A DNA stretch of 34,876 bases from a virus. Location of the stretch: the UHGV virus genome UHGV-0134942, one strand, 5' to 3'. The notes below the pieces were generated by a model, which worked only from the letters and a program-made list of their open reading frames with translations, was not told the origin of the DNA and made no database searches. Both the position numbers and the translations under genes were made by a program. Shown piece by piece: positions 4,187-22,641 of this stretch; within the stretch, counting starts at the first letter, position 1; every line of letters starts with the position of its first letter.

Positions 4187-4203
4187 GTTGGAGTCACTAC
4201 CTT

Positions 4204-5394
4204 GGATCTGAAGGTAAGGCAAATCTCGATAAGTTGGCTCCGTATTTTGCTGAACTAGAGAATAAATATGGTCTTCCAGAAGGCACTCTTTACGCGATTG
4301 CTGCAACTGAATCTGGTGGTAATCCGTATGCAAAATCCCAAACCGGTGCTCTGGGAATGTTTCAGTTCACGGGGATTGCTCGTGAAGAGACTGGCTTAGC
4401 TGAAGGTGAATCGTTTGATCCTGTGAAATCGGCAGAAGCTGCGGCTCTTCTCATGAGCAAGTATCTGAAGCAAGCCAATGGAGACTTAAACGAGGCCATC
4501 ACTGCATATAACGCTGGGTTTGGCACTATCAATAAGTGGAAAAAAGGCACAGGTGACTTATCGAAAGAAAACCGTGAGTACGCGATCAAGGTCAATACTC
4601 ATCGTGCTCGCTATTTAGGTGGTGAAATCTATACACCTGGAGCAGGAGCACAGGGTGGGGCGCAATATGGAGTGAGGGGACCACTGCCTGATAACGCTGT
4701 TATCGATCAGTCTACTGGCCTGGCGTTTACCCCTAGTGATAGCCCGTTTGAGAAAGGCGGTCTGGTAGACAAAATCGGCAATGCTGTTGGCGTTAACGAT
4801 CTGGTCAACAAATTCATGAATGGCCGGGGTATGCGTCGGGAAGTCGTTCAGGGAACGCTCGAAGAACGTGCACGAGGGAAGGGGACCGCAACAGCAGCTG
4901 GCAATGTGTATGTTGATACTCCGATGCCAGTTGAAGAGGCGCGTCCGGTGACCAGCAACTCAAGTTACTTTGACCAACTCGGCGCACAAATGGGGATTGA
5001 TGGACTATTCGATAAACTCCGCAACTCGCCGGGGATGCGGAAAAATAATGCGCCTGAACCAGCCTCCACGTCCCAGGTGACGACTGCCGCCAACGATTTG
5101 CAGCAACCAACCGGTCGTATGCAGATAGACGGACAGGTTATTAGTGACCTTGGTGGTTCCGGTGCCAAGCCGACAATGCAGTTGGCTGATAATACCGTTT
5201 CACTTGATGGTGAAACGAAGCGGCTGTTTGCGCAGATGACCTCATTACTTGCCAGGATTGAAGAGCACACCAAAGACTCGGCGAAAGGCCAGGGAACTGT
5301 CGTAAAGGTCAGCACGCCTCAGCCGGGCGTTATGCGCACGGTACCACTGTCAATTGATGATCCGTTGATGAATGACTACGCGAGAGTTGATTGA
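4204..5394 (+). pseudogene. sit: 5'-truncated sit-like structural injection transglycosylase (C-terminal about 396 codons, lytic transglycosylase domain)
   Basis: Reading frame is open from the first in-frame codon after IS1 (4204); the track only finds a TTG start at 4234. SLT-domain motifs ATESGGNPYAKSQTGALGMFQF and AYNAG are present. Followed by pmgA/bplA-like genes as in P1. Confidence 0.65.
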
Positions 5395-5750
5395 TGGCCA
5401 ACAATAACGAAATTGATCCTTTGCTGACGCTGGAGTTATCCGGCGTAAAAACGTATGAGTCCCAGGAGGAGGCCTGGGGCGCTCGTTTATATGAGTGGCT
5501 AAACACTTATCAGGGTGAGGTATACGGAGATCCGTCATGGGGCAATGTTTTACCGCAGTTTAAACACGAACCGACCAACTTGTCGCATGTTCAAATTGCG
5601 GTTGAGGCAATGCTGTTGCAAAAACTGACGGTAGATTTATCTGACATACCGATTTCTGGCTTGTCAGTAGCCGAGGGAGATGCTTTTGATAAGTTGAAAA
5701 TATCCATTCGTATCAGGGATATAACTATCACACAGGACGTGGTGCTATGA
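5394..5750 (+). CDS. pmgA: Putative tail/baseplate morphogenesis protein (118 aa)
   Basis: Track ORF; ATG at 5394 overlaps the upstream stop (translational coupling). Name by synteny only. Confidence 0.45.
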   Translation: MANNNEIDPLLTLELSGVKTYESQEEAWGARLYEWLNTYQGEVYGDPSWGNVLPQFKHEPTNLSHVQIAVEAMLLQKLTVDLSDIPISGLSVAEGDAFDKLKISIRIRDITITQDVVL

Positions 5751-7180
5751 GTAAAACAACACCGACTAAAGACAGTATTCGTGCAGAGTTTGAAGAGCTT
5801 GTCGAGAAAGATTCATTCTGGTCGAAGTTTGTCGGCTCTCAATTTGTCTCGATGCTGACATTGTTTATTACCCAGATTGTCTACAGGTGCTTTCAGTATG
5901 CCGATGCGGCGCTGGCTGAAGGCTTTATATCGACCGCGACGCGGCGTTCCTCTATCTTGGCAGCGGCAGAAACGAATAGTTACGTTGGTACCAAGCCAAC
6001 ACCGTCATCGGGGATGATTGAGATCACCGCCACAAGTGAAGATGCCCCAGCGGTAATCCCCAAAAACATGCCTTTAATATCTGACGACCAGTACCCTTAC
6101 ATGACTATGGATGTATGCAGGTTGGTTGACGGCACCGGTACGGTAGAAGTGGCACAGTTGGAAATCCAGGAGGTGACATATACCGTTACGGCAGCCAAAG
6201 AATTTCTGGAAGTCGTGTTATCAAAGGCTCTCACTGCTGTCTGCTATAAGCTGGAAGTATTCGTGACGACCGATGGTAAGACCACGCAGTGGTCTTCCAG
6301 CACTATGTTCCGGTTAGCCGGTAGTAAAAGCCAGGTCTACGTTGAGTTTTATAAACCATCCGAGCAGTTGGGGGTTCGATTCGGTGATGGGCTAATTGGG
6401 CAAATACCGCCAGAAGGCTCGACCATTACACTTAAGGTATGGTGCACCAACGGAGATATAACCTTGGTTGCTGGCCAAAATCTGACGCCTGTCGATTCTG
6501 CGGCTAATTTAGCTAATTTGATTTCAGTTAAGACAACGACACCCATAACCGCAGGTACCGATGCCGAAACAACGGAGATCACACGTAATCGTGCACAATA
6601 TTACCTTGCCTATGATGATCAGGTCGTATGGGGCGGGGACTATACGTATTTTCTGGTGCGTAACATCCCGGGACTGTCCTGGGTAAAGGCATGGGGCGAA
6701 GGCCAGCAAGAGAAATTAGATGGTGCTTATAATATCCGGAATATCAATAAGATATTTATTTCAGGATGGCATCCAAACAAAAGCCAGTCAGAGCTTGAAG
6801 AAATGATCCTGGCTGCCTTTAAGAAGGTGCCGAATGAGTTGAACAAGAAATTCTCGTATAAAGAGGTCAGAAAACTACCCTTTAAGATCACCATCACCGG
6901 GCGGATATCGGCAAGCCTGACCATTGAGAACGTGACTGATGAGCTGAAGTCGGCACTGGAAACAAAATTTGGGCGTGACTCAACTTTCTTTGATCCGAAC
7001 CGTGTCGGCAAGTACATCCTAATCAAGAAAAAAGACGTTTGGGCATTTATCGAAACGCTGGGTTATTTCCGCGACTTTTATCTGGAATTTGTCGAGTGGA
7101 ATGAGTCCAACGGCTTTTACGATTTCGTTTATCTGGATACAGAAAACTCCACCTTTAATATTTCGTATGAGGAGGAGTGA
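5747..7180 (+). CDS. bplA: Baseplate protein (477 aa)
   Basis: Track ORF coupled to neighbours by ATGA overlaps at both ends; position between sit and the tail fibre genes. Name by synteny. Confidence 0.5.
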   Translation: MSKTTPTKDSIRAEFEELVEKDSFWSKFVGSQFVSMLTLFITQIVYRCFQYADAALAEGFISTATRRSSILAAAETNSYVGTKPTPSSGMIEITATSEDAPAVIPKNMPLISDDQYPYMTMDVCRLVDGTGTVEVAQLEIQEVTYTVTAAKEFLEVVLSKALTAVCYKLEVFVTTDGKTTQWSSSTMFRLAGSKSQVYVEFYKPSEQLGVRFGDGLIGQIPPEGSTITLKVWCTNGDITLVAGQNLTPVDSAANLANLISVKTTTPITAGTDAETTEITRNRAQYYLAYDDQVVWGGDYTYFLVRNIPGLSWVKAWGEGQQEKLDGAYNIRNINKIFISGWHPNKSQSELEEMILAAFKKVPNELNKKFSYKEVRKLPFKITITGRISASLTIENVTDELKSALETKFGRDSTFFDPNRVGKYILIKKKDVWAFIETLGYFRDFYLEFVEWNESNGFYDFVYLDTENSTFNISYEEE

Positions 7181-8016
7181 TGCAGCGTTCCTGGTTTAAT
7201 AACCGGCTTACATCAGCTAAGCAAAAGTCATTGCTCTATAAATCATTGGCTGATTTGGTTCAGTCAATGATGGATACCTTTGTTGACCCATGGTTGGAGC
7301 GAATTACCAACCGGAAGTCTATTTTTTCCATGAGCAAGGAGGATCTGGAGACCAGGACAAATGAACTTGGCCAGTTCTTTACTATCAGAACGTCGAACTC
7401 ATCTTCCGTTCCGATGTTGTTACAACAGCGTCTTGATGAGATTCACTTTAAGGGGACTGAACGCCCTATAAACCAGACAATTTACCGCGAATTTAACGGT
7501 ATTTCTGTTTTATGGGATCCGATATATGCACCGGTGGACCTTGAGCGTCATCCCTATGGCACGGTTCTAATACCAGAAAGCACACTGGAGACTACCGGCG
7601 GCACATTCGGCGAGATGTTTCTGACTTCCAGAGGGATGATCAGTATTCCCATAAACGACCTGGCCCGGACAATGGGGATTACTGGCACGATAGATCAGTC
7701 CGCAATTACAGAAGAAATTCTCAGAAAGTTTAATCAGTTCGTAAAGCCTCTACTGCCACTGCATATAGTGTTTGATGGGCTTACGCTCTATTTGTCGGTT
7801 GTTGTAAATGAACAGGCCGACATGATCACTTTGAACGAGATTTCTGATACCGAAAAAGCATTCTGCTGGTTTGAAACTTCGGATACAACTTCGCTTACTG
7901 GAGTTACGTCGATTAGCGCCCCGATCACCGCAACGCCTGGTGGCACTATTGTGAAAGCGACACCTACGTTTGATCGCACACGCGCAGATGATTTGTTGCT
8001 GGATAGCGACGCCTGA
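7180..8016 (+). CDS. Baseplate/tail structural protein (P1 gp16-like, 278 aa)
   Basis: Track ORF 7177..8016; ATG at 7180 overlaps the bplA stop. Confidence 0.5.
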   Translation: MQRSWFNNRLTSAKQKSLLYKSLADLVQSMMDTFVDPWLERITNRKSIFSMSKEDLETRTNELGQFFTIRTSNSSSVPMLLQQRLDEIHFKGTERPINQTIYREFNGISVLWDPIYAPVDLERHPYGTVLIPESTLETTGGTFGEMFLTSRGMISIPINDLARTMGITGTIDQSAITEEILRKFNQFVKPLLPLHIVFDGLTLYLSVVVNEQADMITLNEISDTEKAFCWFETSDTTSLTGVTSISAPITATPGGTIVKATPTFDRTRADDLLLDSDA

Positions 8017-8019
8017 CAA

Positions 8020-8044
8020 TCACCCCGTCCGCAGGGCGGGGTGA
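8020..8044 (+). terminator. GC-rich stem-loop after gp16 (possible attenuator or weak terminator)
   Basis: CACCCCG(8021-8027) pairs with CGGGGTG(8037-8043); weak U-tract downstream. Confidence 0.3.
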
Positions 8045-8094
8045 CAAGTTACTTCTCTTACAATGAGGCTTCACAACATTGATTAGGGAAAATC

Positions 8095-8529
8095 ATGTCT
8101 GACGTCTCAACAAACCTCTATAAGAGTCAGTTGTTGGACTATTACTATCAGCGGCGCGCTGAATCGTCCATTAACAAAGGCTCTCGATTTTTAATCAGCA
8201 AGGCCGTTTTCGGTACCAGTTCACTGGTTACTAAGAAAGGAGATGGCACTTATGAGATTGGAGAACTGCCAAAGGCTTTCGATCTGGCAGAACTGACCAG
8301 TCAATTTTGCACCATCAACCTCGTCCCAACCTACTCAGGCGGGATAATAACTGTCCGAATGGACCTTGATCAAAGCCAGTTGCAGGAAGGGAAAAACTAC
8401 CCATTCAACACTCTGGTTGTTCTGGATAACGAGAACAAGCCAATCGCCATTATTTGTGTCCAGGAAGACTCGCTGTATGTGGGCAAAACATATACCGCAG
8501 TTATGGCCATAAACACGACTACAGCATAA
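8095..8529 (+). CDS. R: Tail fibre-associated structural protein (P1 R-like, 144 aa)
   Basis: Track ORF immediately upstream of the tail fibre gene; stop at 8527-8529. Confidence 0.45.
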
Positions 8530-8540
8530 GGATATGCTTG

Positions 8541-11500
8541 ATGAATGACGTTACAGTTGTCACATCGGTTACTTACCCATCACCCGAGTCGTTGGCTCTG
8601 GTGGCTGATGTGCAATACCACGAACCATATCTGTCAGCCGCGCTAAACCGAAAATTCAGGGGGATTGTTGACCCGGGATTTTATGCCGGTTTCTTACCTA
8701 AGCCTGGCGGTGGGATGAACCTGTTAATCACCTCAGTGGATGGTGATAAAACCGCAGGCGCGGCGTCGGTGGATATTGGTGAATTCTACCAGGTAACTAT
8801 TCAGCAACGTAAGGATATTTCTCTTGCACTTAGTGCAGGCAAGAAATATGCAATTGTGCTGAAGGGAAGATACCTCCTTGGAGAAGATACCTATCAGGTG
8901 AATACCGCGTCACATATTCATGCGGCTGAATTTGTTTCCAGAACCTATACCGATTCATATCAGTTAGGAGATGGGGAGCTGCTTGTTTGTACGGTGAATA
9001 TCCCTGCTGGTGTATCTGCCATTACCCAGGAGATGATTGATACATCCAAGCGTATCAACCGCACGATCGGCATTGATATTTCAGACTCTGTAACCAGTAC
9101 CAGAAGTGATGTTGCTGCGAGTTCGCTGGCAGTTAAAAAAGCCTACGATCTGGCTAAAAGCAAGTATACGGCGCAGGATGCAAGCACAACACAAAAGGGA
9201 TTAGTTCAGCTCAGTAGCGCAACTAACAGCGACAGCGAAACAATGGCGGCTACCCCTAAAGCCGTTAAGTCTGTAAAAGAGCTGGCTGATACCAAAGCGC
9301 CAATAGAAAGCCCGAGTCTGACAGGAACGCCAACCGCGCCGACGGCAGCGCAAGGTACAAACAGCACGCAGATCGCAAATACAGCCTTTGTTAAGGCAGC
9401 TATAACGGCACTTATCAACGGTGCACCTGGCACACTGGATACGCTTAAAGAAATAGCTGCTGCGATCAATAACGACCCGAATTTCAGCACAACTATCAAC
9501 AATGCTCTGGCTCTTAAAGCTCCTTTAGCAAGTCCTGCATTAACGGGAATACCTACTGCGCCTACCGCTGCACAGGGTACGAATAACACGCAGATTGCTA
9601 CGACCGCTTATGTAAGAGCTGCTATCTCTGCATTGGTCGGCTCATCACCTGAAGCTCTTGATACTCTGAATGAGCTTGCAGCAGCACTGGGCAATGACCC
9701 GAACTTTGCGACAACAATGACAAATGCGCTGGCAGGCAAACAGCCTCTGGATGCAACTTTAACCGCGCTCGCTGCCCTTGCGACTGGTGCAAACAAACTG
9801 CCTTATTTCACTGGTAAGGATACGGTAGCGCAGACTGATTTAACGTCAGTCGGTCGCGATATTCTGGCTAAAACAAGCACACTGGCCGTTATCCAATACC
9901 TTGGTTTAAGAGAACTCGGTACCAGCGGTGAAAAGATCCCCCTGTTGAGCACGGCTAACACATGGAGTGCGCGCCAGACTTTCAACGGCGGGATCACCGG
10001 GGCGCTGACAGGGAACGCCGACACCGCGACGAAATTGAAAACAGCACGCACGATTGGCGGTGTGGCATTTGATGGCTCGGCCAATATCAATCTTCCAGGT
10101 GTAAATACAACAGGTAACCAGAACACCACGGGGAATGCTGCTACCGCGACAAAACTTGCGACGGCAAGAAACATCAACGGTGTTAAGTTTGATGGCTCAG
10201 GCGATATCAACATTAATACATTGGTATCTCGTGGCCGAGTTACGGCGTTAAGCGGCTCTACTCAAGGCACTGCTGGCATTCAAATGTACGAGGCGTACAA
10301 CAATAGCTACCCGACCACGTATGGCAACGTATTGCACATGAAAGGTGCGAGTGCTGCTGGTGAGGGCGAGTTGCTTATTGGCTGGAGTGGTACGAGCGGT
10401 GCACATGCGCCAGTTTTCATTCGCTCCCGAAGAGATAACACAGATGCGGCATGGTCTGAGTGGGCACAGGTCTATACATCGAAAGACTCCATACCGGGCG
10501 TAAATACAACGGGCAACCAGAACACAACAGGAAATGCGGCGTCTGCCACGAAATTACAAACGGCAAGAACCATTGGTGGCGTTTCATTTAATGGTACCGC
10601 AAACATCGACCTGCCAGGTGTGAATAAAACAGGTAATCAGAGCACTACTGGCAATGCTGCAACTGCAACAAAACTGCAAACAGCACGCACAATAGGCGGC
10701 GTATCATTCGATGGCTCCGCCAATATCAATCTGCCGGGTGTAAACATTGCTGGTAACCAGAACACAACCGGTAATGCAGCTACGGCTACCAAATTGCTAA
10801 CAGCGCGTACCATTAATGGGGTTTCATTTGACGGTTCTGCGAATATTTCACTGTCACCAGCAAATATTGGTTGCCCGGCATCTCCTACTGGTTGGCTTGT
10901 AACAGGTGATAATGGAGCTTCAATAACAACAGAGCAATTAGTGACTCTGCTACGAGATAATGGTGCTTTTAATGCAAAGGCATGGATAGCGCGTTGTGCC
11001 TGGGCGTATGCAAATAGTGCATCCATACCAGACAGCGAAACAGGATGCGGCATTATTCCACTGGCTGGCGCAGTTATTGAGGTATTTAATAACGGCAGTA
11101 GCTCAAACAATTATACGATTCGTATAACAACGGCAACAACGACAGGTGTCTCTGGCGCACTCACTAATGCGGAGTTTGTCTATGTGTTTAACGGGACGAG
11201 CTATTCACCAGGATGGCGCAGAGCGTATAACACTAAAAACAAGCCTACTGCGGCTGATGTCGGAGCTTTACCACTATCTGGAGGAGCGTTAACTGGCGGA
11301 TTAACTGCTGCTGGCGAGATTATTTCCAAATCGGCGAATGGTCTGCGCATTGCCTACGGAAACTACGGATTCTTTATCCGAAACGATGGTTCAAACACAT
11401 ATTTCATGTTGACCGATTCGGATAACAGCCTAGGAACCTATAATAGGTTAAGGCCGCTTATCATTAACAATGCCAATGGTGCTGTTACGATCGGTAATGG

Positions 11501-12560
11501 ACTCAATGTTACTGGCGGCATCAATGGTAGTTTGAACGGTAATGCTGCAACTGCTACAAAACTTCAGACTGCAAGAAAAATATCCGGTGTTCCATTTGAT
11601 GGTTCTACTGATATCACTTTAACCGCCGCGCATGTGGCTGCTTTTGCCAGAAGGGCAACGGATACATATGCCGATGCGGATGGTGGCGTTCCCTGGAATG
11701 CCGAATCAGGCGCTTACAATGTCACCCGCTCTGGCGACAGCTATATTCTGGTTAACTTCTATACCGGAGTCGGAAGTTGCCGGACATTGCAGATGAAGGC
11801 GCATTACAGAAATGGTGGTCTGTTCTACCGTTCTTCAAGAGACGGTTATGGTTTTGAAGAAGACTGGGCAGAAGTTTATACCTCGAAAAATCTTCCACCA
11901 GAAAGCTACCCAGTCGGCGCACCAATCCCGTGGCCATCAGATACCGTTCCGTCTGGTTATGCCCTGATGCAGGGGCAGACTTTTGACAAATCTGCTTACC
12001 CGAAACTTGCAGCCGCTTATCCGTCAGGCGTGATCCCTGATATGCGTGGCTGGACGATTAAGGGCAAACCTGCCAGTGGTCGTGCCGTATTGTCTCAGGA
12101 ACAGGACGGCATTAAATCGCACACCCACAGCGCCAGCGCATCCAGTACGGATTTGGGGACGAAAACCACATCGTCGTTTGATTACGGTACTAAACCAACG
12201 AATAACACAGGTGCACATACCCACAATGTATCTGGTACTGCAAATAGTGCTGGCGCACATACTCATACCGTTCCATTAAGGAGACCAAACAGTGGAGGTA
12301 TGAATTTCGACTGGCTTGATGGTTCATCAAGTGGCACGGTCGTGGGGAATGGAACAGTGCCTTCTTCTGGTGCACACACCCACTCAGTATCAGGCACTGC
12401 TGCAAGTGCAGGGGCGCATGCACATACAGTTGGTATTGGCGCTCATACGCACTCTGTTGCGATTGGTTCACATGGACATACCATCACCGTTAATGCTGCT
12501 GGTAACGCGGAAAACACCGTTAAAAACATCGCATTTAATTATATTGTGAGGCTTGCATAA
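8541..12560 (+). CDS. S: Tail fibre protein (1339 aa) with internal tandem repeats and a His-rich C-terminal tip
   Basis: Track ORF 8454..12560; the likely start is the ATG at 8541 ([15 protein letters not shown] Shine-Dalgarno upstream, just after the R stop). Two ~74-aa repeats ([26 protein letters not shown]…), at least five copies of a ~40-aa unit ([40 protein letters not shown]), and C-terminal GAHTH/HxH repeats. Confidence 0.85.
9300..9760 (+). repeat. Two ~222-bp in-frame tandem repeats inside the tail fibre gene (phage-fibre repeat)
   Basis: Protein repeats [63 protein letters not shown] and [63 protein letters not shown]. Confidence 0.7.
10006..10860 (+). repeat. Array of ~120-bp in-frame tandem repeats inside the tail fibre gene
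   Basis: Recurrent unit [10 protein letters not shown](Q/A/L)TART/NIxGVxFDGSANIxLPGVNxxGNQ(N/S)TT; a further copy lies near 11527-11625. Confidence 0.7.
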
Positions 12561-13177
12561 TGGCATTCAGAATGAGTGAACAATCACGTACAGTAAAAAT
12601 TTATAACCTGCTGGCCGGAACTAATGAGTTTATTGGTGAAGATGACGCATATATTCCACCTCATACAGGGCTGCCAGCTAATTCTACAGATATCGCCCCA
12701 CCGGAAATTCCTACTGGCTTTGTGGCAGTTTTCAACAGTGAAAATGAATCGTGGAATATTGTTGAAGACCATCGTGGTAAAACGGTCTATGAGGTGGCAT
12801 CGGGGGACGCGTTGTTTATTTCTGAACCCGGACCGCTACCAGAGAATGTCACCTGGTTGTCGCCAGCAGGGGAGTATCAGAAGTGGGACGGCGTATCCTG
12901 GGTGAAGGATGAGGAAGCAGAAAAACTGTTTCGGATACGGGAAGCGGAAGAGAAAAAGGCAAGGTTGATCCAGGAGGCAACAGATAACATCGCAATTCTG
13001 CAGGACGCAGTTAATCTTGAAATAGCAACAAACGAGGAAAATTCACAACTGGACTCCTGGAGAAAATACAGAGTATTAGTGAGTCGAATTGATACCAGTA
13101 CAGCTCCGGATATCGTATGGCCAGAGCTGATGAATCAGGGTTATGTGCGGGAGGACGAGCAGATAACTTCAGACTGA
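12560..13177 (+). CDS. U: Tail fibre assembly chaperone (Tfa/U-like, 205 aa)
   Basis: ATG overlaps the S stop (TAATG); size and position typical of tail fibre assembly proteins; conserved W-KYR-like C-terminal segment ([14 protein letters not shown]). Confidence 0.75.
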
Positions 13178-13704
13178 AATTTAGTGATGAATGTTGAATC
13201 ATCAGGAATATCATGCAATACCAATGCATGAGCACCTATTGTGACATTGTTTCCTATACGCACTTTGCCACCAAGAATGGTGGCATTACAACCAATGGTC
13301 ACATTATCTCCTATAACAATATCCATGTCATTAAATTCCCCGCGAAGTCCAATAGTTACTCCGGGCTTAATTGAACAATTTTCACCGATTGTGACTTTGT
13401 GAGCGATAACAACGCCATTGAGATAAGATATGTCAAACCCTTTCCCTATATTTACCGTTAAGGGAACGGTTACATTGTATTTGTCAAGAATGAAGCGTTC
13501 TATTTTCCCTGCAACCTTTCGCCTGTATCCGCCTTTATCAAAAAGATATTTTGATATGCGCCACCAAAATAAATAACGAACTCTTCTATGTTTTATTGCG
13601 CGAACAATTGCTTTTCGCCAAGAGAAAGGACGCTCGCTACCAATTACTTCATAGTGAATACAGTCTTTAAGTTCATTAATAGTCATATTTCTATTGTTCA
13701 GCAT
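13141..13704 (-). CDS. Hexapeptide-repeat (left-handed beta-helix) acetyltransferase, AT-rich; possible moron (187 aa)
   Basis: Imperfect hexapeptide repeats ([16 protein letters not shown]…[34 protein letters not shown]). Markedly lower GC than the flanking phage genes. Converges on U and overlaps its 3' end by 37 bp. Confidence 0.7.
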
Positions 13705-13769
13705 AATATAATAATGTGACCAATTATTATAATAACTTTAATGGATTATTTCTACTGATTATCCAGTGT

Positions 13770-14700
13770 GTCTGGCGGTTTTCGGTATTATCTGCCGGAA
13801 CCATGCCTCATCCAGCGGGTATTTGCTGCCTGGGTTGTCCGGTTTTTCGGTCACTCCCTCAGGCCTCCGATTCTGGTCACGGCGGGTTTGTTATTTTCCA
13901 GTGCGTCGGATGACCACTGCCGCAACTTCTGCACCATTTTTTGGGAGCGGGATTTCACTCCTACGCAACCTGCGCTTTTTGTGCAGCCTGTTTTGCGTGC
14001 TATCCCGGATTTTTGAGTTTCATTCTGCCTCCATGATCCTATCAGGGACGACACCAATCCACTTAAGCACGATGCCAAGACCATCAAGGAGCTGCGTCAG
14101 AGGCCCAGCACAATGTTCTGCTTGATCGGCATAGGGGGGAGCACAAGGGCTGCGCCCCTGCCACACCACCCGGCATGCGGGTCCGTACCGGGCTTCCTCG
14201 GCTTCTGACGCAATGTCCTGTCAAGAGTCATATCTTCTGGCTTTCCTTCTCGTTCGGCCCTTCGTCGGAGTCCTGACTACTACGGCCTCTGCTGACTTCT
14301 CGCTCCGTCTTACGACGTTGCCCTTTCAGGCATGAGGCGAGAACTCCCCAGGTAAGAACGCGATCCTTCCCCGCACAACCGTCGGATCTGCGCGACTTCG
14401 ACTTGACCACGAAAGCTTCGCAGTGATGTGCCTGCTCGCCTTGCTCCATCGCGCCTCATATCCGATTCTCGTTCATCGGCTCACGGGTTCATTCCGTGCT
14501 TCCTCCCCACGCCCGGTCGCCCTCACGCAGTTGCACTTCATTTCGCTCGCTGTGGTCAGCTCGCGGGAGGGCTTTCACCTCCAAGATCGCGCCCATGCTG
14601 GGCGCACACATCCTCCACGCTCTAAAGGACGTGGAGGATGTCAAGCAACATGACCGGTTGAGAAGTTACTTTGCATACCATTACCTCCTGACAACGTAGG
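13770..14700. other. ~0.9 kb GC-rich, strand-skewed block (pyrimidine-rich on +) without a convincing ORF; candidate structured RNA, long leader or decayed gene
   Basis: All six frames give only short overlapping Pro/Ser/Arg-rich ORFs of 60-120 aa. Contains perfect hairpins at 14589-14605, 14609-14640 and 14684-14703. Lies where P1 carries cin and the invertible C-segment. Confidence 0.4.
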
Positions 14701-14703
14701 AGG
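14684..14703 (+). promoter_or_regulatory. Hairpin pairing the lydA Shine-Dalgarno (AGGAGG) with an upstream CCUCCU
   Basis: CCTCCT(14684-14689), 8-nt loop, AGGAGG(14698-14703); GTG start of the holin-like gene at 14710. Confidence 0.4.
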
Positions 14704-14709
14704 GAACTT

Positions 14710-15039
14710 GTGCTTGACACACAGGAATTAGCTCCAGTTGCTATTGCGCTCCTGCTTTCAGTAATTGGTGGGATAGGCACGTTCCTGATGGATGTCCGAG
14801 ATGGTCGCCAGTCTGGCAATTTGTTGGGATTGGTTACGGAGATCTTTGTTGCAGTGACAGCTGGCGCGGTGGCGTACCTATTGGGGCAACACGAGGGCTG
14901 GGAGTTATCAATTACGTACTTAATGGTAACGATAGCCAGCAATAACGGTCATGAGGTGATTTCAGGGATGAAACGAGTGAATATCGATAGCATTCTGAAT
15001 GTTCTTACAAGTTTGGTGAAAAAGGGAGGTGGGAAATGA
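14710..15039 (+). CDS. lydA: Holin-like membrane protein (109 aa)
   Basis: GTG start with AGGAGG Shine-Dalgarno; hydrophobic helices (LAPVAIALLLSVIGGIGTFLM and EIFVAVTAGAVAYLLG); first gene of the hdf-darA operon, as P1 lydA. Name by synteny. Confidence 0.55.
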   Translation: MLDTQELAPVAIALLLSVIGGIGTFLMDVRDGRQSGNLLGLVTEIFVAVTAGAVAYLLGQHEGWELSITYLMVTIASNNGHEVISGMKRVNIDSILNVLTSLVKKGGGK

Positions 15040-15479
15040 TTGGCTGGGGTGTATGCGTTCTTGCGTTAGCCTTAGCCGATCGCTATTTGCTAAAACGCAA
15101 GGACATCACGCATTTAGAACTTGGTGATGTGGAAGTTAAACAGGGCTTCATCCGGGTGCCGTTCAAATACCGGTCTAAATTCCCGTTTTTGCGCGGCGCA
15201 ACGGTCAGATATTGGATCCGCGATGTTCAGAAGCCAACGACAGTGATTGAAGGCGAACAACGTTGTCTGACGTCGGCTGAACAGGGCGAAAACAGTGAAT
15301 GGTTGTACATACCCACTGAATATATGGGTAAAGGAGAACGGCTGTGGCATTTCAACGTCATGGTTACGCATGGTGACTCGTTCATTAACCCGTTGTATCG
15401 GATTTTCCCTGTTACTCAGCAAATCCGCAGAAGTTACGTAATAAATCTCGCACAGGATGTGTCAGATGACGAAAAATAA
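15036..15479 (+). CDS. lydB: LydB-like lysis regulator (antiholin-like, 147 aa)
   Basis: ATGA overlap with lydA; N-terminal hydrophobic segment. Name by synteny. Confidence 0.5.
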   Translation: MIGWGVCVLALALADRYLLKRKDITHLELGDVEVKQGFIRVPFKYRSKFPFLRGATVRYWIRDVQKPTTVIEGEQRCLTSAEQGENSEWLYIPTEYMGKGERLWHFNVMVTHGDSFINPLYRIFPVTQQIRRSYVINLAQDVSDDEK

Positions 15480-16068
15480 GTATGCAACGGTCGATTTTGA
15501 CCAGGTTAATGAAAAGGGGCTGAAATCCCTTATCGCGGCGATCAATAAAACCGGGGTTACGGTAATTGAGGTTGACTCCAGCAACCGCGCAACAACGAAA
15601 GATGGCGTTAAAGTTAAAACCGCAAAGCTGGTTCTTAACGACGGACAAATTCTTGCCATACAGGTAAACGATACTGGCGATATATCGTCTGTGAAACTGA
15701 ATGGAAAAGCTATTCCTAACGCTCAGTCGCCGGATATCAAGACGCTTGGTACCGTCATGGGACAGGCGGCCCGCAAAAACTCCGCAAAATTCCAGAAATC
15801 ACTGATCGCCAAAGCGAAGCGTGTTGCCAATCCGGTAGACAAGAAACCGGCAGTTAAATCCAACTTTCAGCGCCTGCAAGAAGCAAAACAGCGGAATGCT
15901 CAGGTGGTTGCCGCTTATAAGTCCGCGCAGAATTCGGTGTCTTTCAATCAACAGCAGATCACTGATTTGCGGGCGAAGCTGGATAAGGAGACAGGCCGAC
16001 TCAATAACGAAAAGGCCCGAAATGGCGAACTCAAACGCCGTCTTAAGCAACTGAAAGCAGGAAATTAA
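15457..16068 (+). CDS. hdf: Hdf-like protein (homologue of a DarA fragment, 203 aa)
   Basis: Shares a segment with the downstream 639-aa protein (…KNSAKFQ…, and GQILAIQVNDTGD versus GQTISILFHSPTAE). Position upstream of darA as in P1. Confidence 0.55.
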   Translation: MCQMTKNKYATVDFDQVNEKGLKSLIAAINKTGVTVIEVDSSNRATTKDGVKVKTAKLVLNDGQILAIQVNDTGDISSVKLNGKAIPNAQSPDIKTLGTVMGQAARKNSAKFQKSLIAKAKRVANPVDKKPAVKSNFQRLQEAKQRNAQVVAAYKSAQNSVSFNQQQITDLRAKLDKETGRLNNEKARNGELKRRLKQLKAGN

Positions 16069-16069
16069 C

Positions 16070-17989
16070 ATGGAGCAGTTCAATATCAATAAAGGGGTGA
16101 CGATCAAGCCTGGGCTTGACGTGCTTCCCCCGCCAGTGACTGATGATGAATATCGCGCATTAATGGCCGGTGAGGACCGCTATCTGATGACGGAATCCAA
16201 CACCCTGGAGGAAATCGAGGCTACGTTCTTCTATGACACGCCGATCCACTGGTGTGCTACGGATTTACTGGAGGCGATTAGTTCTACTCGTTTGCAGTTA
16301 CACCGGACCATGCAGGCATTTGTCCGGGCATTGAACCAGAAGCTGAATGGTACCGGAATCTCTGCGGGGAGTGATAAAACGGGGGATGTGGCCCAGAACG
16401 GCGCGCGCGCGATCGGCGGTGCTGAAATTGGCCGGGCACGGAACGTTAACGGGCTGCCGGTCCTGCCAGCCATTATTCCGCTCAGTGATGGTCAGACTAT
16501 CAGCATTCTGTTTCATAGCCCGACAGCGGAAAACCGGATCACCAATAGCGATACGCTGGTTGCTTTCCAGTTCTTACTGAATAAAAAAGACGTTACTCAC
16601 ACCGTTGCTCCGATGAGTGGACGTGATATGACGCTGGCGCAGGTCACCATGAAACTTGCCAACCTTGCAGAGAAAAACTCGGCAAAATTCCAGCGTGCGC
16701 AGAAGAAGAAAAAAGCCCTGGTTGATGAAATAACCCAACTACAGGCTGACAGTGACCAGAAAGAGGATGCCATGAGCGACCTCGCGGATCAGGTGGCAGT
16801 GGTAGAAGGGCAGAAGGCAGATCTGGAGCAGAAAATTAACGCGGTCGCCTCGGAAGCGGATTCTCTTTATGAAGAGAATGAGCGTTTGCAGGCGGAGATT
16901 GATCAGCTCAATCGAACAGGTGGGCGCGATACCATTGCTCCAGTGGCAATAACTGGTGGGCACTCACGCGCGTTGACGGATCGCCTTGCCAGTATCAAAA
17001 ATCGCATGCATATGGACGGTGAAGCGACGCTCAGTAATGGTGCATCAATGAAGCAATTCATTGGGGATGGCGAAGGGTATATCCAGTTAACCGATCCGGA
17101 TGGCAGCGTATACATGATCAAGGCTAAATCCATACAGGGTGTGGACATGGCAGATGCAATCGGCAAGCTGTTTAAAGCCTATAAAGCGGGTAATGTATCG
17201 GAATACCTGGTCCAACCAGAAGAACATAAACCGGAAAACGTCGAACCTGAACCAGCGGAGGATACCGGTAGCTCTTCGCCTGAACCAGAAGTCTCTGTAG
17301 GTGCATATCGATATGCCCTGCAAATGCGTCCGGCGGCCCCTGGCGCAATACCTGAAGGTAACAAAGCAATTCTGCCGCGCCCTGATGAAGGTGACCCGTA
17401 TTATGAATATGCACGCTACGGCATTGCTACTTACGATACCCCGCTTTCTGATCAGCAAATGAGTGAGTACGACCTGAAGTTATTGCCTCGCGAGGATTCT
17501 TTCGATTTCCTGGCGAAGACACTTACTAATGGTCCGTTTGGCAAATATGCACAAAAAGCTCTGGAGCTGGCCACCAGCTCACCAGACGAGTTCCGCGTAA
17601 TGCTGAAAACTCAGTTTCAAAAAACTTTCCCCAATATTGCGTTTCCTGGGGGCGCTGGCACCGAGAAAATGGTGCAGAGCATGATCAATGCATTGCAGGC
17701 CGAAGTCGGTGAGATTACTCAGCCAGAACCGGCCCCGGCACAGCCTGATGAAACGGTTAGCGAAGCAGATGCAGAGGCTAATAAAGCCATTGAATATCTC
17801 AATAACGTGATGGATATGCAAAGCACTGACATGGCGGAGATCCGTAACGCCCGGGGCAATGTCCGGGAAGCGATTGCAGCCCTTCAGGCTGCCGGACGTT
17901 TTGAGGAAAACGAAGAGCTGGTTAACGGCGCAGCTCGCCACCTGGCTGATCTGTTGGTAGCAATCCAGAAAGCGGGGGTAGCGGCATGA
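16070..17989 (+). CDS. darA: DarA-like internal head protein, anti-restriction (639 aa)
   Basis: Size and position match P1 DarA as recalled; central coiled-coil and acidic segments; AGGAAA Shine-Dalgarno before the ATG. Confidence 0.6.
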   Translation: MEQFNINKGVTIKPGLDVLPPPVTDDEYRALMAGEDRYLMTESNTLEEIEATFFYDTPIHWCATDLLEAISSTRLQLHRTMQAFVRALNQKLNGTGISAGSDKTGDVAQNGARAIGGAEIGRARNVNGLPVLPAIIPLSDGQTISILFHSPTAENRITNSDTLVAFQFLLNKKDVTHTVAPMSGRDMTLAQVTMKLANLAEKNSAKFQRAQKKKKALVDEITQLQADSDQKEDAMSDLADQVAVVEGQKADLEQKINAVASEADSLYEENERLQAEIDQLNRTGGRDTIAPVAITGGHSRALTDRLASIKNRMHMDGEATLSNGASMKQFIGDGEGYIQLTDPDGSVYMIKAKSIQGVDMADAIGKLFKAYKAGNVSEYLVQPEEHKPENVEPEPAEDTGSSSPEPEVSVGAYRYALQMRPAAPGAIPEGNKAILPRPDEGDPYYEYARYGIATYDTPLSDQQMSEYDLKLLPREDSFDFLAKTLTNGPFGKYAQKALELATSSPDEFRVMLKTQFQKTFPNIAFPGGAGTEKMVQSMINALQAEVGEITQPEPAPAQPDETVSEADAEANKAIEYLNNVMDMQSTDMAEIRNARGNVREAIAALQAAGRFEENEELVNGAARHLADLLVAIQKAGVAA

Positions 17990-18351
17990 CACTATCAGCT
18001 ATTGAGTTAATGGATCTCAGCGATAAGTTGGATGCTCTGATGTCCAAAGCGGCTACCGCGAGTGGTATGGAGTTGCTGGATATCAGCGATGAAATTGACC
18101 AGATCATGCAACAGATGGGGTACGGCGCGTCCGGCGGTGGTAGTGGCGAGGAAAAACAACCTTCGGAACATGATGGTGTGCCAAAACTGGTTGCTGATTT
18201 CCTGGCTGATAAATTCGTCGATCAGAGCACCGATGCATTTATCGGTACCTTGCAGGATTTGAGTCAATATGTTGGCACATACATCGACCTGGACCAGGTT
18301 AAACAGCACACGGCGGCATGGATAGCCGCCAACATTAAAGAGGCAGCATAA
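17986..18351 (+). CDS. ddrA: DdrA-like protein (121 aa, acidic)
   Basis: ATGA overlap with the darA stop; small acidic protein. Name by synteny. Confidence 0.45.
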   Translation: MTLSAIELMDLSDKLDALMSKAATASGMELLDISDEIDQIMQQMGYGASGGGSGEEKQPSEHDGVPKLVADFLADKFVDQSTDAFIGTLQDLSQYVGTYIDLDQVKQHTAAWIAANIKEAA

Positions 18352-18363
18352 GGCGTAACAGGG

Positions 18364-21351
18364 ATGAGCTTAAGCGATCAGGTGGTAATGGCCACCAGCA
18401 TAGAAACGCTGATCGAGCTGCTAAAGAACCTGCCCGATTATGGGCGGGTTTCGTATGTGGTGACAGCGAAGGGAGACGAGGTAAAAACAGCGTTTGATAT
18501 CGTCGATGCCTCAGCTCTTTTGGTATCCAATACTCTGGATGGGCAAATTAATCCTGACTATCCCCAGGAACTTCAACCGCGCGACCGGACCCGCGCATCC
18601 AGCCTTCTTCAGGTTAACCAGATATCCAAAGATTTGCGGCCTGCTCAGCTTACTGATTCCGGTTTATCCAGCCATGGCGCGCCGATAATTGGTGAGGACA
18701 ATGCCGTTGAGTCAGGTAATGGACGGACCATGGGGATCATCAAAGCCTATCAGGACGGCAATGCGGATCGGTATCGTGAGTACCTGATTGATCATGCGAC
18801 CGAATTCGGCATACGACCTGAAAAGGTTGAATCAATGACGGCTCCGGTACTGGTGCGCCGCCGGTTAACTAAGGTTGACCGCGTTCAGTTTGCCAAGGAC
18901 TCAAATATTTCTGATCTTCAGGAAATGGCAGCCAGTGAAAAGGCTTTTGTTGATGCCGACAGCATAACACCGGCGATGATGGCGCTTTTTAACCCGTCAG
19001 AAAGCGGAGATCTGCTTAGCCGCAGTAATGACGCGTTTATTCGCGGATTTATGACGCAAGTTGGTGCCACACAGGCGGCTGGCCTTGTAACTGAAGATGG
19101 GCGACCAACACGGCAACTTGTAGACCGTATACAAAACGCGATCTTTGCCAAGGCATATAAGGATGCGCGCCTGGTAAGGATGGTTGCAGAAGAACCTGAT
19201 CCGGATATGCGTAATGTTCTGACGGCGCTTAATGCGGCAGCCAATGATTTTGTCCAGATGCAGGCTTTATCAGGAGAAGCGCACAAGCAGGCTGTGACAA
19301 CTATTGTTGATGGCATTGAGACAGCGGATAGCCTCGATAAAAAGGCGCTGGCGGCATTGAAAGATGCGGTAGACCTGGTAAGGCAATCGAAGGAGTCAGG
19401 CCAGCATATTACCGATGTTATTGCTCAGGGGGATATGTTCAGCGAAACGGCCCCGGAAGTGAAAGCACTCGCGTTGTTCATCGTCGCGAATAACCGTAGC
19501 GCGAAGCGTATGGCCACCGCCTTTAAGTTGATGGCTCAACGTATCAATGATGAGTTACAGCACCAGGGCCAGGCGCTGGGGGATATGTTTGGCGGCGGCG
19601 ATGTGTCGTTACAGGATATCCTTCGCCAGGTGTCTCAGGAACTGGAAAACGAAGGCATGCAAGGGATATCCGGCGGTCTTTTCGAGTCCGTTTCCGGCGG
19701 TAGTTACAACGGTGTTGCTCCGTATACCAGTTTGCTATTACATCGGGCATCCGGCATCAAAGACATTATTCATCTGATCAGGCTGCTTTCCCGCACAGAT
19801 CCCCAGGATGAACAGCTTGTACAAGTGCTTGCGCATTTTGTTCGAATGCCTGTTGCCGACGTGAAAAAATGGTGCCGATTATTCGGTATCAGCAATTCGT
19901 TACTTCGCGGCTTGTTAAATCACGCATCCTCCCTTGGGCGCGATGGCTTTGACGAGATAGCGCAGGCGATAAAAAACGGAGATATGCCACCAGCTATTGA
20001 CTGGTTTTCCATTCGCCCAACCAGGGTGAAAGCATTCCTTAGCGCGGCGCATTCGGCATCACCATTGGCAGAAATGGTTCAGAGGTTGTCGCTCATATTC
20101 ACAGACCATACCGCGTTGGGTGATCTGACTCTGGACGAGATGAAAGAAGCCTCCATTCAGTGGGCCGATCAACAAAATGAGGTTAACTCAGACTTCTTGC
20201 CAGCATTCAGGAAGGCCGTTAGTAAAGCGGATGATGCCCGTGGAATTCTGAAGGCATTTAAGGCATTGCAAAGTCGTGTTAATAAACATGTCGGTGATAT
20301 CGATGGGGTAACGGCGGAAGGCCGGGATATCCTTCAAGAGCACGGCATAACGCCAGAGTTTATTGATGAGATCAGGACTGATATGCAGCGTGAGGTCGTA
20401 TCGTCCCTGCAAATCGTAGCCAGAGCGTTGGCGGATGCTAATCCGAAGAGTGCGGCCATTGTTAACCGGGTTATTGGTGATATTGAAGCATCGGAGGGCA
20501 TGGGGGCGCTGAAACTCTTCCTTTCGCGAGCGTTTAATCCTAACGGCAATATTCTCCCTGGCATTATTGGTGAGGCTAAAAAGTATGTCAGTGAAGAAGA
20601 ACTTGAGCAGCTTGACCAACTACTTAAGCGATTCTCATATAACCCGCAGACACGCTGGCAAATGAATCAGCGAAGTATGGGTTCGGTCCACGAGAAAGTG
20701 TTATCTGCCATGAACAGTGCGATCGCCAACTCATCCGTATCTGAAGAAAAAGCTCTTGAGTGGGCCGACTCTTTTATCACGGAAGAAGTGGAAGAAGCCC
20801 GCGCTGGACAGAATGGTGGGATAAACCTGCGCAAGGAACTTGCTGATATTTATCGCCTGACTGGCGGGAAAATATCGACCTTATCAAAGGTGGTTCACCA
20901 CCAGGGAAGGGCATATGCAAATCTAAATGGTGTTGTTGCTGTCAATTTGAACGATGAAAATGCAAGTGCACTGTGGCACGAGCTGGGTCATCATCTTGAG
21001 TACAGTAACCCCGGTTTGTTAGAGAAAGCCCGGTCATTCCTGAAGGCCAATGTTGAAGGGGGTAAGCCATCTTTCGTCAATATCGGTGGGCGTGGCAAGC
21101 CTGAATGGTGCTTCAGATCTCGATTGAGTAATATTTATATGGCGAAGGTATACCCGCCAGTCTCAGTGAGTAACTCCGGGAAAATTCGGCAGAAATCACC
21201 GACTATTTCCAAAACGTCAGCAACGGAAGTATTCTCTATGGCTCTTCAGTTGTATCATGACAAAGAGGCCGCTGCCGCATCACTGATGAATGGTGACGGA
21301 TTGCTGGAACTGTTATTAGGTGTGGCAAAGGAGCTAAATAATGCAGATTAA
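18364..21351 (+). CDS. ddrB: DdrB-like large protein of the Dar module (995 aa)
   Basis: Long ORF co-oriented with darA; name by synteny and size. Confidence 0.55.
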   Translation: MSLSDQVVMATSIETLIELLKNLPDYGRVSYVVTAKGDEVKTAFDIVDASALLVSNTLDGQINPDYPQELQPRDRTRASSLLQVNQISKDLRPAQLTDSGLSSHGAPIIGEDNAVESGNGRTMGIIKAYQDGNADRYREYLIDHATEFGIRPEKVESMTAPVLVRRRLTKVDRVQFAKDSNISDLQEMAASEKAFVDADSITPAMMALFNPSESGDLLSRSNDAFIRGFMTQVGATQAAGLVTEDGRPTRQLVDRIQNAIFAKAYKDARLVRMVAEEPDPDMRNVLTALNAAANDFVQMQALSGEAHKQAVTTIVDGIETADSLDKKALAALKDAVDLVRQSKESGQHITDVIAQGDMFSETAPEVKALALFIVANNRSAKRMATAFKLMAQRINDELQHQGQALGDMFGGGDVSLQDILRQVSQELENEGMQGISGGLFESVSGGSYNGVAPYTSLLLHRASGIKDIIHLIRLLSRTDPQDEQLVQVLAHFVRMPVADVKKWCRLFGISNSLLRGLLNHASSLGRDGFDEIAQAIKNGDMPPAIDWFSIRPTRVKAFLSAAHSASPLAEMVQRLSLIFTDHTALGDLTLDEMKEASIQWADQQNEVNSDFLPAFRKAVSKADDARGILKAFKALQSRVNKHVGDIDGVTAEGRDILQEHGITPEFIDEIRTDMQREVVSSLQIVARALADANPKSAAIVNRVIGDIEASEGMGALKLFLSRAFNPNGNILPGIIGEAKKYVSEEELEQLDQLLKRFSYNPQTRWQMNQRSMGSVHEKVLSAMNSAIANSSVSEEKALEWADSFITEEVEEARAGQNGGINLRKELADIYRLTGGKISTLSKVVHHQGRAYANLNGVVAVNLNDENASALWHELGHHLEYSNPGLLEKARSFLKANVEGGKPSFVNIGGRGKPEWCFRSRLSNIYMAKVYPPVSVSNSGKIRQKSPTISKTSATEVFSMALQLYHDKEAAAASLMNGDGLLELLLGVAKELNNAD

Positions 21352-21649
21352 AATCGCAGCGCCATTAGGCGGAGATGCCATTATCGAATTTGATGATAAT
21401 GAAGAAGTTTCCGGGCGTTTAAGCATTATCTCCGGTGACATTACCGAGGACATGATCGCTGAAGCCATAGCTGGAGCAAATCCCAATAGCTATATGGGAT
21501 TCGTTAACACCCTTGATGCTCCCGCAAGTGATGTTCTCCGAACGCTGCATCTTTACGCTGGCTGGTTTGTTGATTGGCCAGCAGTAGATGGTGGCGATGA
21601 GGACGACGACGATGATTTTGGTGATCATGTAGACCAGATCGTATATTGA
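21341..21649 (+). CDS. Small acidic hypothetical protein (102 aa)
   Basis: Overlaps the ddrB 3' end by 11 nt; C-terminal DGGDEDDDDDFGD; followed by a terminator. Confidence 0.45.
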   Translation: MQIKIAAPLGGDAIIEFDDNEEVSGRLSIISGDITEDMIAEAIAGANPNSYMGFVNTLDAPASDVLRTLHLYAGWFVDWPAVDGGDEDDDDDFGDHVDQIVY

Positions 21650-21651
21650 AG

Positions 21652-21680
21652 AAATCCCGCCAATCGGCGGGATTTTTTTT
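21652..21680. terminator. Bidirectional rho-independent terminator between convergent genes
   Basis: AAATCCCGCC / loop AATC / GGCGGGATTT followed by TTTTTTTT on the + strand. Confidence 0.7.
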
Positions 21681-22641
21681 AATCGCTTTCCACTTCTTCC
21701 GTAGTGTTTTCTTGCAGTTCTGTTAATGCAGCACGACACAGGCTCCGGGCATTGGCTATAGCCACACTTTTGACTTCATCCGTCATCGTGCAGGTAATGT
21801 ACTGATCGAGTTCTTCAGCGCGGATGATGCTTTTGCCAATCAGAAACTGTATTTGCCAGAGCAGATCAGCATCCATAATCAGAATTTCTGCCGGGCCTTC
21901 AGGACCAGCCGGGAAGGAAACATAAGACTGTTTGCCCAGGCCGATAACTCGACAACTTGCTTCAAGAATTGCGCGATTGAGGTCTGACTTTGTAACTGAT
22001 ACAGGTTGATTTTCACCTGCGATTACGCCGTTGACATGGATGTGGAATGGCATGTAGCTTGAAATTCGCTCTACTTTCCATACGCCAGCAAGCGATCCTT
22101 CATGCAGCACAATGGGGGTAACCGCGAGTTTCATCTCACCATATAACTGCTGGCAGATAGCTGGATTGCTGAATACATCCAAAGGTTCACACTCAAACAG
22201 CGGCGCAATCTGTATGAGGTCCATCATGGTCATACCAGGGGTACGAGCAGTAATGAATCTGCGCATGCCAGTATCCATTGTGCGCCAGATAGCTACACCA
22301 TGCTTTTTGCTCACTTCTTCAGTAAAGCCAAGGTGGCACATGATGGTTTTTTCGATAGCCAGATCAGAGATAGAAACCTTTTCGCCAGGTACACCATCAT
22401 TATTGATGGTCACTTCGACACTCTGGCCATTACGCAGGCGGTATTGAATTGTTTTAGTATTTTGTGCTGTCATAGTCTTTTCTCTGCTTAAAAACTGATG
22501 TATTGCGCCTTCAGGTGGGTCAGGAATGTTTTCCCACCAGCGAAAGCAATATCTCGGGGTGTTCTTTTCGTGAAAAGCGCGTGCCATTGCCAACTTTGGC
22601 GTTTTTTTGCGAGTTCGTGCTTTTGTCGGCGTCTTGACCAC
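21679..22641 (-). CDS. Hypothetical protein (320 aa, start uncertain); occupies the position of P1 isaA/isaB
   Basis: Long minus-strand ORF between ssb and the Dar operon. Very basic N-terminus suggests the real start may be an internal Met (for example MTAQNTK). Confidence 0.5.
   Translation of the reverse strand: MVKTPTKARTRKKTPKLAMARAFHEKNTPRYCFRWWENIPDPPEGAIHQFLSREKTMTAQNTKTIQYRLRNGQSVEVTINNDGVPGEKVSISDLAIEKTIMCHLGFTEEVSKKHGVAIWRTMDTGMRRFITARTPGMTMMDLIQIAPLFECEPLDVFSNPAICQQLYGEMKLAVTPIVLHEGSLAGVWKVERISSYMPFHIHVNGVIAGENQPVSVTKSDLNRAILEASCRVIGLGKQSYVSFPAGPEGPAEILIMDADLLWQIQFLIGKSIIRAEELDQYITCTMTDEVKSVAIANARSLCRAALTELQENTTEEVESD

Follow-up and report, generated by a model that had tools for sequence, protein, structure and literature searches.

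Here, we analysed the virus genome UHGV-0134942, a 34,876-nucleotide stretch of DNA (the window) with a P1-like backbone, and focused on a minus-strand gene that converges on the gene of a tail-fibre assembly chaperone (tfa) and encodes a left-handed beta-helix protein of the acetyltransferase family. An initial annotation, made from the sequence alone, had described it as an oppositely oriented, low-GC acetyltransferase gene that overlaps the 3′ end of the chaperone gene by 37 bp and is preceded by an AT-rich, promoter-like region, and our analysis upholds this description. The features at the centre of the locus are the following.

13141..13686, minus strand: coding sequence of the beta-helix protein (181 aa), with the predicted fold of a serine acetyltransferase (SAT); Tyr94 (187-aa numbering) stands at the position of the catalytic His
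13687..13774, minus strand: AT-rich upstream region (25% GC), which moves together with the beta-helix gene; the cassette boundary lies at about 13774
13754-13749 (-35, TAGAAA) and 13731-13726 (-10, TATAAT), minus strand: sigma-70-like promoter with a 17-nt spacer, the best promoter-like site of the region
12560..13177, plus strand: gene of a lambda-Tfa-type tail-fibre assembly chaperone (Caudo_TAP, PF02413, E=2.8e-39), convergent with the beta-helix gene

The open reading frame (ORF) at 13141..13704 (minus strand, 187 aa), which begins at the upstream ATG 13704, was confirmed, and it shares positions 13141-13177 with the chaperone ORF. Because ATG 13704 is not kept among the homologues of the gene and RefSeq places the start at 13686, the sequence comparison indicates that translation probably begins at ATG 13686, giving a protein of 181 aa. 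That the ORF is a real gene, and not a chance reading frame, follows from its Pfam match, from a full-length match to PHROG 2154 (function unknown; E=7.5e-78, residues 5-186 against profile positions 2-184/185) and from 1028 homologues at E<=1e-5. Its GC content is 38.5%, compared with 25% in the 88 bp upstream (13687-13774) and 49.6% in the whole window, and its GC at third codon positions is 0.31, compared with 0.43-0.53 in the neighbouring genes; in composition, the gene thus differs from the backbone.

Both promoter hexamers are kept in copies from three other phage backgrounds, which lends weight to the promoter-like reading of the upstream region; the promoter scan by itself is not significant (5 sites compared with 2.4+/-1.7 expected). 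No P1 Lpa-type late promoter was found upstream of the beta-helix gene or on its strand, and neither of the two late promoters nearby, LPs at 8046 (plus strand) and LPdar, drives it. Between the convergent tfa and beta-helix genes there is no terminator. A search for phase-variation repeats in the beta-helix gene returned none, its sole tandem repeat being a 2-copy 10-mer. Several hallmarks of a moron are present, namely foreign composition, a conserved predicted promoter, an orientation independent of the phage operon and a patchy presence among related phages, with the gene missing from P1 and P7 and found in 37 related plasmids.

Fold and active site of the beta-helix protein

The profile search confirmed the assignment to the hexapeptide family (Hexapep, PF00132, E=5e-14; 51.7 bits against a gathering cut-off of 27). 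A profile of the family aligned with solved SATs over almost its whole length (E=8e-32; SAT residues ~100-269), and an AlphaFold2 monomer model built on a 107-sequence alignment, with a predicted local distance difference test score (pLDDT) of 91.3, consists of four helices followed by a left-handed beta-helix. All of the top 50 Foldseek matches in the PDB are SATs (probability 1.00; template-modelling scores of 0.63-0.77 normalised to the query). A model built earlier on 42 aligned sequences was poor in the beta-helix (pLDDT 73), and its Foldseek matches, which were not significant, were set aside. Conservation is complete in the hexapeptide coils and in the Gly/Ile/Asn core, which build the coenzyme A (CoA) tunnel, and the sequence displays no signal peptide or hydrophobic segment. 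The product is thus a soluble protein which, according to the model, has the fold of the C-terminal two-thirds of SAT.

Like CysE, the protein combines helices with a following beta-helix and retains the family consensus of the active-site loop, and SATs provide both its best profile match and its best fold match; unlike CysE, it is 181 instead of ~273 aa long and has no N-terminal hexamerisation helices. The closest named NCBIfam families are EpsC (81.1 bits against a cut-off of 150) and WcaB (62.4 against 194.65), as well as CysE. Similar length and architecture link the protein to WcaB and EpsC, which makes a glycan acceptor plausible. It differs from them in scoring below their cut-offs, in having tail-fibre and lysis genes and not a polysaccharide cluster as neighbours, and in that the catalytic His is not conserved. 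The database name ‘serine acetyltransferase’ therefore reflects true homology but is almost certainly wrong as a function, and even the plain label ‘acetyltransferase’ is uncertain, because the catalytic His/Asp pair is replaced by Tyr/Thr.

This replacement is the central peculiarity of the protein. In SAT (E. coli numbering), His158 and Asp143 form the catalytic pair, and Asp157, Arg192 and His193 line the serine/cysteine pocket. HMMER alignments place Tyr94 opposite the catalytic His, with ‘SYLNG’ in the query where SAT has ‘DHATG’, Thr in place of the Asp of ‘VDIHP’, and Met-Asp in place of the Arg-His of ‘DRHPK’. At SAT positions His158, Asp143, Asp157, Arg192 and His193, the query thus has Tyr94, Thr79, Ser93, Met127 and Asp128, respectively. 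We surveyed the active site in 110 family members. Tyr occupies the His position in 13/13 members with at least 52% identity to the query, whereas His is kept in 97/97 relatives at 50% identity or below; among the latter, the partner position holds Asp or Glu in the closer sequences (60 of the 97), and the most distant group mostly has Ser. The canonical Asp/Glu-His pair is retained in SacF of JL22, Sat of phiNP and the copies from Salmonella and Buttiauxella.

In a neighbour-joining tree, the Tyr sequences form one clade nested among the His types, which implies a single ancient change that has since been kept. Purifying selection between the copies is strong, with ratios of non-synonymous to synonymous substitution (dN/dS) of 0.02-0.12 at synonymous divergence (dS) of up to 0.68. 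As judged from the sequences, the His-to-Tyr replacement is a maintained change and not a sign of decay.

The segment that replaced the P1 fibre switch

Alignment with P1 yielded backbone homology over 7001-10045 and again from 14643 onward, the restart coinciding with the position of the lydC stop codon. In P1, the interval between these blocks is taken up by the remainder of Sv together with U, U′, Sv′, cixL, cin and lydC, and lydC-cin-Sv′-U′-U-S is a recognised variable region of P1-like plasmids (PMC9603915). In the window, a 4.6-kb replacement occupies the interval, made up of a foreign distal fibre segment, the lambda-type tfa, the beta-helix gene with its promoter region, and a group II intron fragment. 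Besides the features given above, the following belong to this segment and its borders.

9892..9911, no strand: orphan cixR, identical to that of P1, inside the S gene, with neither cin nor a partner site in the window
10046..12559, plus strand: non-P1 distal part of the S tail-fibre gene, of which the last ~470-630 bp are part of the mobile block
13775..14642, minus strand: 5′ fragment of a group II intron (868 bp), holding pieces of domains I-IV only and filling the rest of the replaced segment
14663..14681, plus strand: late promoter LPdar of P1 (AAGTTACTTTGCATACCAT), the first backbone feature past the replaced segment

No tblastn match to cin or lydC and no second cix site were found in the window, and a search for an inverted Sv′/U′ copy gave nothing beyond an inverted repeat of 23 nt at 83%. 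The initial annotation was correct in stating that invertase and inverted copy are both missing and that the beta-helix gene stands in place of P1 cin and the C-segment; comparison with P1 bears this out and adds what had been missed, namely the intron remnant, the orphan cixR and the loss of lydC. The locus shares with the P1 C-segment/Cin switch its address between Sc and lydA and an identical cixR, and differs from it in having no invertase, no cixL, no Sv′/U′ set and no lydC. Host range is fixed to one lambda/T4-type fibre tip. The cassette has taken the place of the invertible C-segment, cin and lydC in one sublineage of P1-like phage-plasmids, fixing one fibre type and bringing the beta-helix gene with it.

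The name ‘U’, initially given to the chaperone, has to be revised. In a tblastn comparison, P1 U matches the chaperone of the window over just 51 residues, at 45% identity, whereas the first ~400 nt of the chaperone gene, together with the 3′ end of the fibre gene, are 85-88% identical at the DNA level to the stf-tfa junction of lambda. The window tfa encodes a C-terminal extension of 15 residues (13133-13177, plus strand), whose codons lie antisense within the 3′ end of the beta-helix gene. The tfa in the lambdoid prophage of the enterotoxigenic E. coli (ETEC) strain H10407 ends 10 bp before the beta-helix gene, and because the two genes do not overlap there, the 37-bp overlap in the window looks like a by-product of the junction and not like a regulatory design.

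The S protein itself (8541-12560, plus strand) is enlarged and chimeric, with 1339 aa compared with 988 in P1. It is made up of the Sc N-terminus of P1, fibre repeats, a trimerisation domain like that of T4 gp34 (PF21446), a tail-collar domain and a tip, the last resembling lambda Stf and T4 gp37 and rich in His-x-His motifs. P1 homology runs 134 bp beyond the orphan cixR, into the former C-segment.

The intron fragment is recognised by Rfam models RF02001 (96.9 bits over 14526..14356) and RF01998 (46.8 bits over 14338..14257), and has GTGCG at 14607, with a 26-nt hairpin at 14612-14637 directly on the 5′ side of it. Neither domain V/VI nor an ORF for a reverse transcriptase was found in it, and the fragment was therefore rejected as a source of reverse transcriptase or ribozyme. 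The segment is GC-rich (57.6%), with related fragments on other E. coli plasmids and short matches on rhizobial replicons. Elsewhere in the window, a full-length sok antitoxin RNA (Rfam RF01794, 114 bits) lies at 344-518 on the minus strand, and its presence suggests a hok/sok-type post-segregational killing module near the window start.

Distribution and mobility of the cassette

An identical 2.7-kb layout of tfa, beta-helix gene, intron fragment and lydA occurs in 37 plasmid records, pHYEC7-mcr1 among them. No structural role is known for any of these close homologues, although at least 37 P1-like plasmids carry one at this locus; with a composition that also differs from the backbone, the gene does not fall under the conditions named in the initial annotation for refuting it. 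Plasmid pHYEC7-mcr1 is a sibling, 99.9% identical over window positions 4201-21647, and carries an annotated porin gene, ompC (22394-23506). At the position of this ompC, the window has an unrelated 1-kb segment (21648-22673) with a 320-aa ORF (21679-22641, minus strand) that has no Pfam match. Lambda-Stf-type fibres use OmpC, so a plasmid-borne OmpC beside such a fibre is intriguing.

Among 5426 complete E. coli genomes, 245 have the gene at 80% DNA identity or more, with 219 chromosomal and 58 plasmid placements. In a sampled table of these matches, most rows also include a tail-fibre assembly gene under the match; a class at ~88% identity does not, its match ending short of the neighbouring gene. 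We inspected three E. coli contexts, those of the Mu/P2-like phage 613R2, a P2-like prophage and the lambdoid prophage of ETEC H10407. In each, the beta-helix gene is convergent to the tail-fibre assembly gene, as it is in the P1-like window, so that the arrangement spans P1-, P2- and lambda-like elements. In the P2-like prophage it is flanked by tfa on one side and the tail operon on the other, and in H10407 the order is J, lom, stf, tfa, beta-helix gene and prophage end. The same convergent layout recurs in Hafnia phage yong2, Citrobacter phiNP, JL22 and prophages of Salmonella and Buttiauxella, the whole set spanning 36-95% protein identity. The yong2, phiNP, JL22, Salmonella and Buttiauxella copies are its distant members (36-54% identity), and that of JL22 lies within a still-invertible C-segment. 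The link to fibre genes is not universal, since in the P2-like ESSI2 phages the beta-helix gene adjoins the integrase gene. A profile scan of species-representative genomes for the Tyr clade found no member, the matches being His-type relatives at 45% identity or below.

JL22 ‘SacF’ and phiNP ‘Sat’ belong to the same family (36-43% identity) and have the same convergent place beside tfa, and SacF occupies the same P1 variable region as the gene of the window. Unlike the latter, these paralogues keep the Asp/Glu-His pair, and JL22 keeps cin and an invertible segment, of which the window has neither. Both genes are listed in the respective genome papers (PMC9603915, PMC6456863), that on JL22 stating that it is unknown why a serine acetyltransferase gene is present (PMC9603915).

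The unit of transfer appears to be larger than the gene. The last ~470-630 bp of S, counted from 11928 or 12087 according to which relative is used, are 94-96% identical to Mu/P2-like prophages, in which the end of the S tip, tfa and the beta-helix gene form one continuous block. This fibre-tip/tfa block, with the beta-helix gene and its upstream 70-90 bp, has 86-96% DNA identity to Mu/P2-like and lambdoid prophages, and its right edge is 13774 in prophages of two unrelated types, whereas the lambdoid copy ends at 13755. Since what is shared extends from the fibre tip as far as this edge, the beta-helix gene and its promoter constitute the outer end of a mobile receptor-recognition cassette. 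The initial proposal of horizontally acquired cargo therefore stands as far as the foreign composition and the mobile block in other prophages are concerned, but the gene came with the fibre cassette and not as a separate insertion.

Recombination has also occurred within the beta-helix gene. Compared with the copies in P2-like and Mu-like prophages, tfa and the last third of the beta-helix gene (its 3′ part) are 98-100% identical, and identity falls to 84-91% over 13287-13774, which comprises the 5′ two-thirds of the gene and the promoter region, with nearly all differences synonymous. This drop in identity places a breakpoint inside the gene near 13287.

Possible roles of the beta-helix protein

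We tentatively read the gene as a self-contained prophage moron at the outer end of a lambda-Stf/Tfa-type cassette, with expression during lysogeny and a product that would modify an envelope glycan or another target, or else bind such a target without catalysis. According to this reading, its own sigma-70 promoter would transcribe the gene in the lysogen, late transcription of the fibre operon, running the opposite way, would oppose it, and the product would assemble in the cytoplasm as a putative trimer. This trimer may act on a sugar-containing envelope precursor or a similar acceptor, most likely by acetyl transfer, and may thereby alter what incoming phages or the animal host encounter at the cell surface, leading to lysogenic conversion or superinfection exclusion, by analogy with NeuO for CUS-3.

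A role in envelope glycans is suggested by the analogies with NeuO and P22-like phages and by the fact that the nearest named relatives are exopolysaccharide O-acetyltransferases. P22-like phages carry gtr genes that are expressed at a high level during lysogeny and prevent superinfection (PMC7067206). NeuO is a beta-helix O-acetyltransferase of polysialic acid, encoded outside the cps cluster by prophage CUS-3 of E. coli K1 (PMC3046976). Our gene shares with neuO that it is prophage-borne, single-gene cargo of the beta-helix acyltransferase family, located outside the polysaccharide clusters of the host. NeuO belongs to the NeuD/Maa-like branch, retains His and Trp as catalytic residues and has a 5′ repeat of heptanucleotides that is phase-variable, whereas the gene studied here has no variable number tandem repeat, scores 51.8 against 160.8 with the NeuD model, and encodes a SAT-type fold with Tyr at the catalytic position.

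Several observations weigh against the reading of the gene as an envelope-modifying moron. The main evidence against simple O-acetylation is the loss of the catalytic pair. In the 13 Tyr members, the position of the acidic partner is taken by Thr, Lys or Val, and no invariant His exists anywhere within the clade; with the catalytic His replaced and its partner lost, O-acetyl transfer by a standard general base is not expected. Because the clade swapped its His-Asp pair in this way, any chemistry must be non-canonical or very slow, and two alternatives are live, namely non-canonical catalysis (for example, on an amine) and non-catalytic binding. Nor does the protein reach the cut-off of any curated polysaccharide acetyltransferase family, and with no partner gene near the beta-helix gene, no acceptor can be named. 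The fibre tip is of the lambda-Stf/T4 type. Known receptors of such tips are OmpC and the lipopolysaccharide core, neither of which a cytoplasmic enzyme using acetyl-CoA would obviously target. Downstream of the gene, no terminator-like site was found on the minus strand. Tfa type and beta-helix type have been reshuffled, the window and JL22 sharing 76% identity in Tfa and 37% in the beta-helix protein; the covariation of the two types that would be expected of a cognate receptor-masking factor was tested and fails on this comparison. Finally, most of the distant chromosomal relatives in other Enterobacterales lack a fibre gene nearby, and only 4 of the 34 stand beside a tail-fibre assembly gene, as judged by a custom hidden Markov model that may miss divergent assembly proteins; the contexts of these relatives are mixed (a phoA-phoH island, transporters, a Ugd-like gene) and uninformative.

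The same active-site changes raise the alternative of a non-catalytic pseudoenzyme, a SAT-fold trimer that has lost acetyl transfer and works by binding. It could sequester an intermediate of envelope biosynthesis, an enzyme of the host or a component of a phage or a defence system and so act in exclusion, defence or counter-defence without chemistry, and we regard this as somewhat unlikely. It would account for the contrast between the uniform Tyr of the clade and the uniform His of its relatives, with the partner Asp/Glu lost simultaneously, for the single ancient change kept under strong purifying selection without any invariant His, and for the replacement of the SAT serine/cysteine pocket (Ser93, Met127, Asp128). 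Against it stand the fully conserved hexapeptide coils and CoA-tunnel core, a gene context that hints at no binding partner, and a search of PADLOC-DB 2.0, in which the beta-helix protein matched 0 defence families at E<=0.01. Moreover, loss of the His is no proof of lost activity, given that some beta-helix N-acetyltransferases, such as QdtC and WlbB, work without a catalytic base. A more specific proposition, which we hold to be unlikely, is that the monophyletic Tyr clade, which temperate phages of E. coli and Hafnia (P1-, P2- and lambda-like) carry convergent to their tail-fibre chaperone genes, consists of pseudoenzymes or of transferases working by a new mechanism, co-inherited with the receptor-binding cassette as a dedicated exclusion or surface-remodelling factor.

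The recurrent placement beside tfa and fibre genes in phages that differ widely would also fit a part of the tail-fibre module that modifies the fibre, helps to assemble it or enters the virion. We consider this improbable, because the gene runs opposite to the late operon, has foreign composition and a sigma-70-like instead of an Lpa-type late promoter, is reshuffled relative to Tfa, and is lacking in P1 and many P1-like phages, which build their fibres without it. The idea of a decaying hitch-hiker without function inside a recombining fibre cassette draws on the breakpoint within the gene and on one copy interrupted by IS1 (H91). It is very improbable in view of the low dN/dS over appreciable dS and the conserved promoter hexamers; all translated copies of the Tyr clade are intact, at a constant 181 aa, and the relatives in the other inspected phages are intact too. 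A genuine serine O-acetyltransferase, with the gene serving as an auxiliary metabolic gene that boosts cysteine synthesis, is what the RefSeq and GenBank name implies and what the best structural matches would seem to favour. It is nevertheless scarcely credible, given scores of 72.1 bits against 210.65 for TIGR01172 and 46.1 against 397 for NF008349, the missing first ~100 residues of SAT and the replaced catalytic and pocket residues. The CysK-binding tail of SAT, which ends in Ile, is likewise missing from a C-terminus that reads ...SSSRT. Just as remote is an acetyltransferase for small molecules (xenobiotics or antibiotics) of the Vat, CatB, LacA or Maa type: the hexapeptide region matches Vat, LacA and Maa models weakly, but these matches reach 22-33 bits against cut-offs of 300-475 and cover generic coils alone, the fold match is to SAT and not to the xenobiotic class, and the catalytic His is missing.

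A beta-helix transferase moron of a prophage beside a tail gene is a kind of element already known, and the gene is annotated in hundreds of records; in the literature, we found no functional study of the family and encountered it in listings as ‘serine acetyltransferase’ only. We believe that the persistent convergent tfa/beta-helix layout across P1-, P2- and lambda-like phages has not been described before, and that the same applies to the failure of the CysE assignment and to the monophyletic, selected clade with Tyr for His. This misleadingly named gene is present in about 1/20 of the complete E. coli genomes and in some 37 P1-like phage-plasmids, of which several also have resistance genes such as mcr-1; the minimum change of annotation is “SAT-like left-handed beta-helix protein, function unknown”. 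Whether a beta-helix transferase can do without a general base, or has become a binding protein, could be tested cleanly on the His-to-Tyr clade. If the protein does remodel the surface or exclude other phages, it would bear on serotyping, on the host range of phages used in therapy and on the spread of phage-plasmids, and it would represent another case of a receptor-related countermeasure physically linked to a receptor-binding module.

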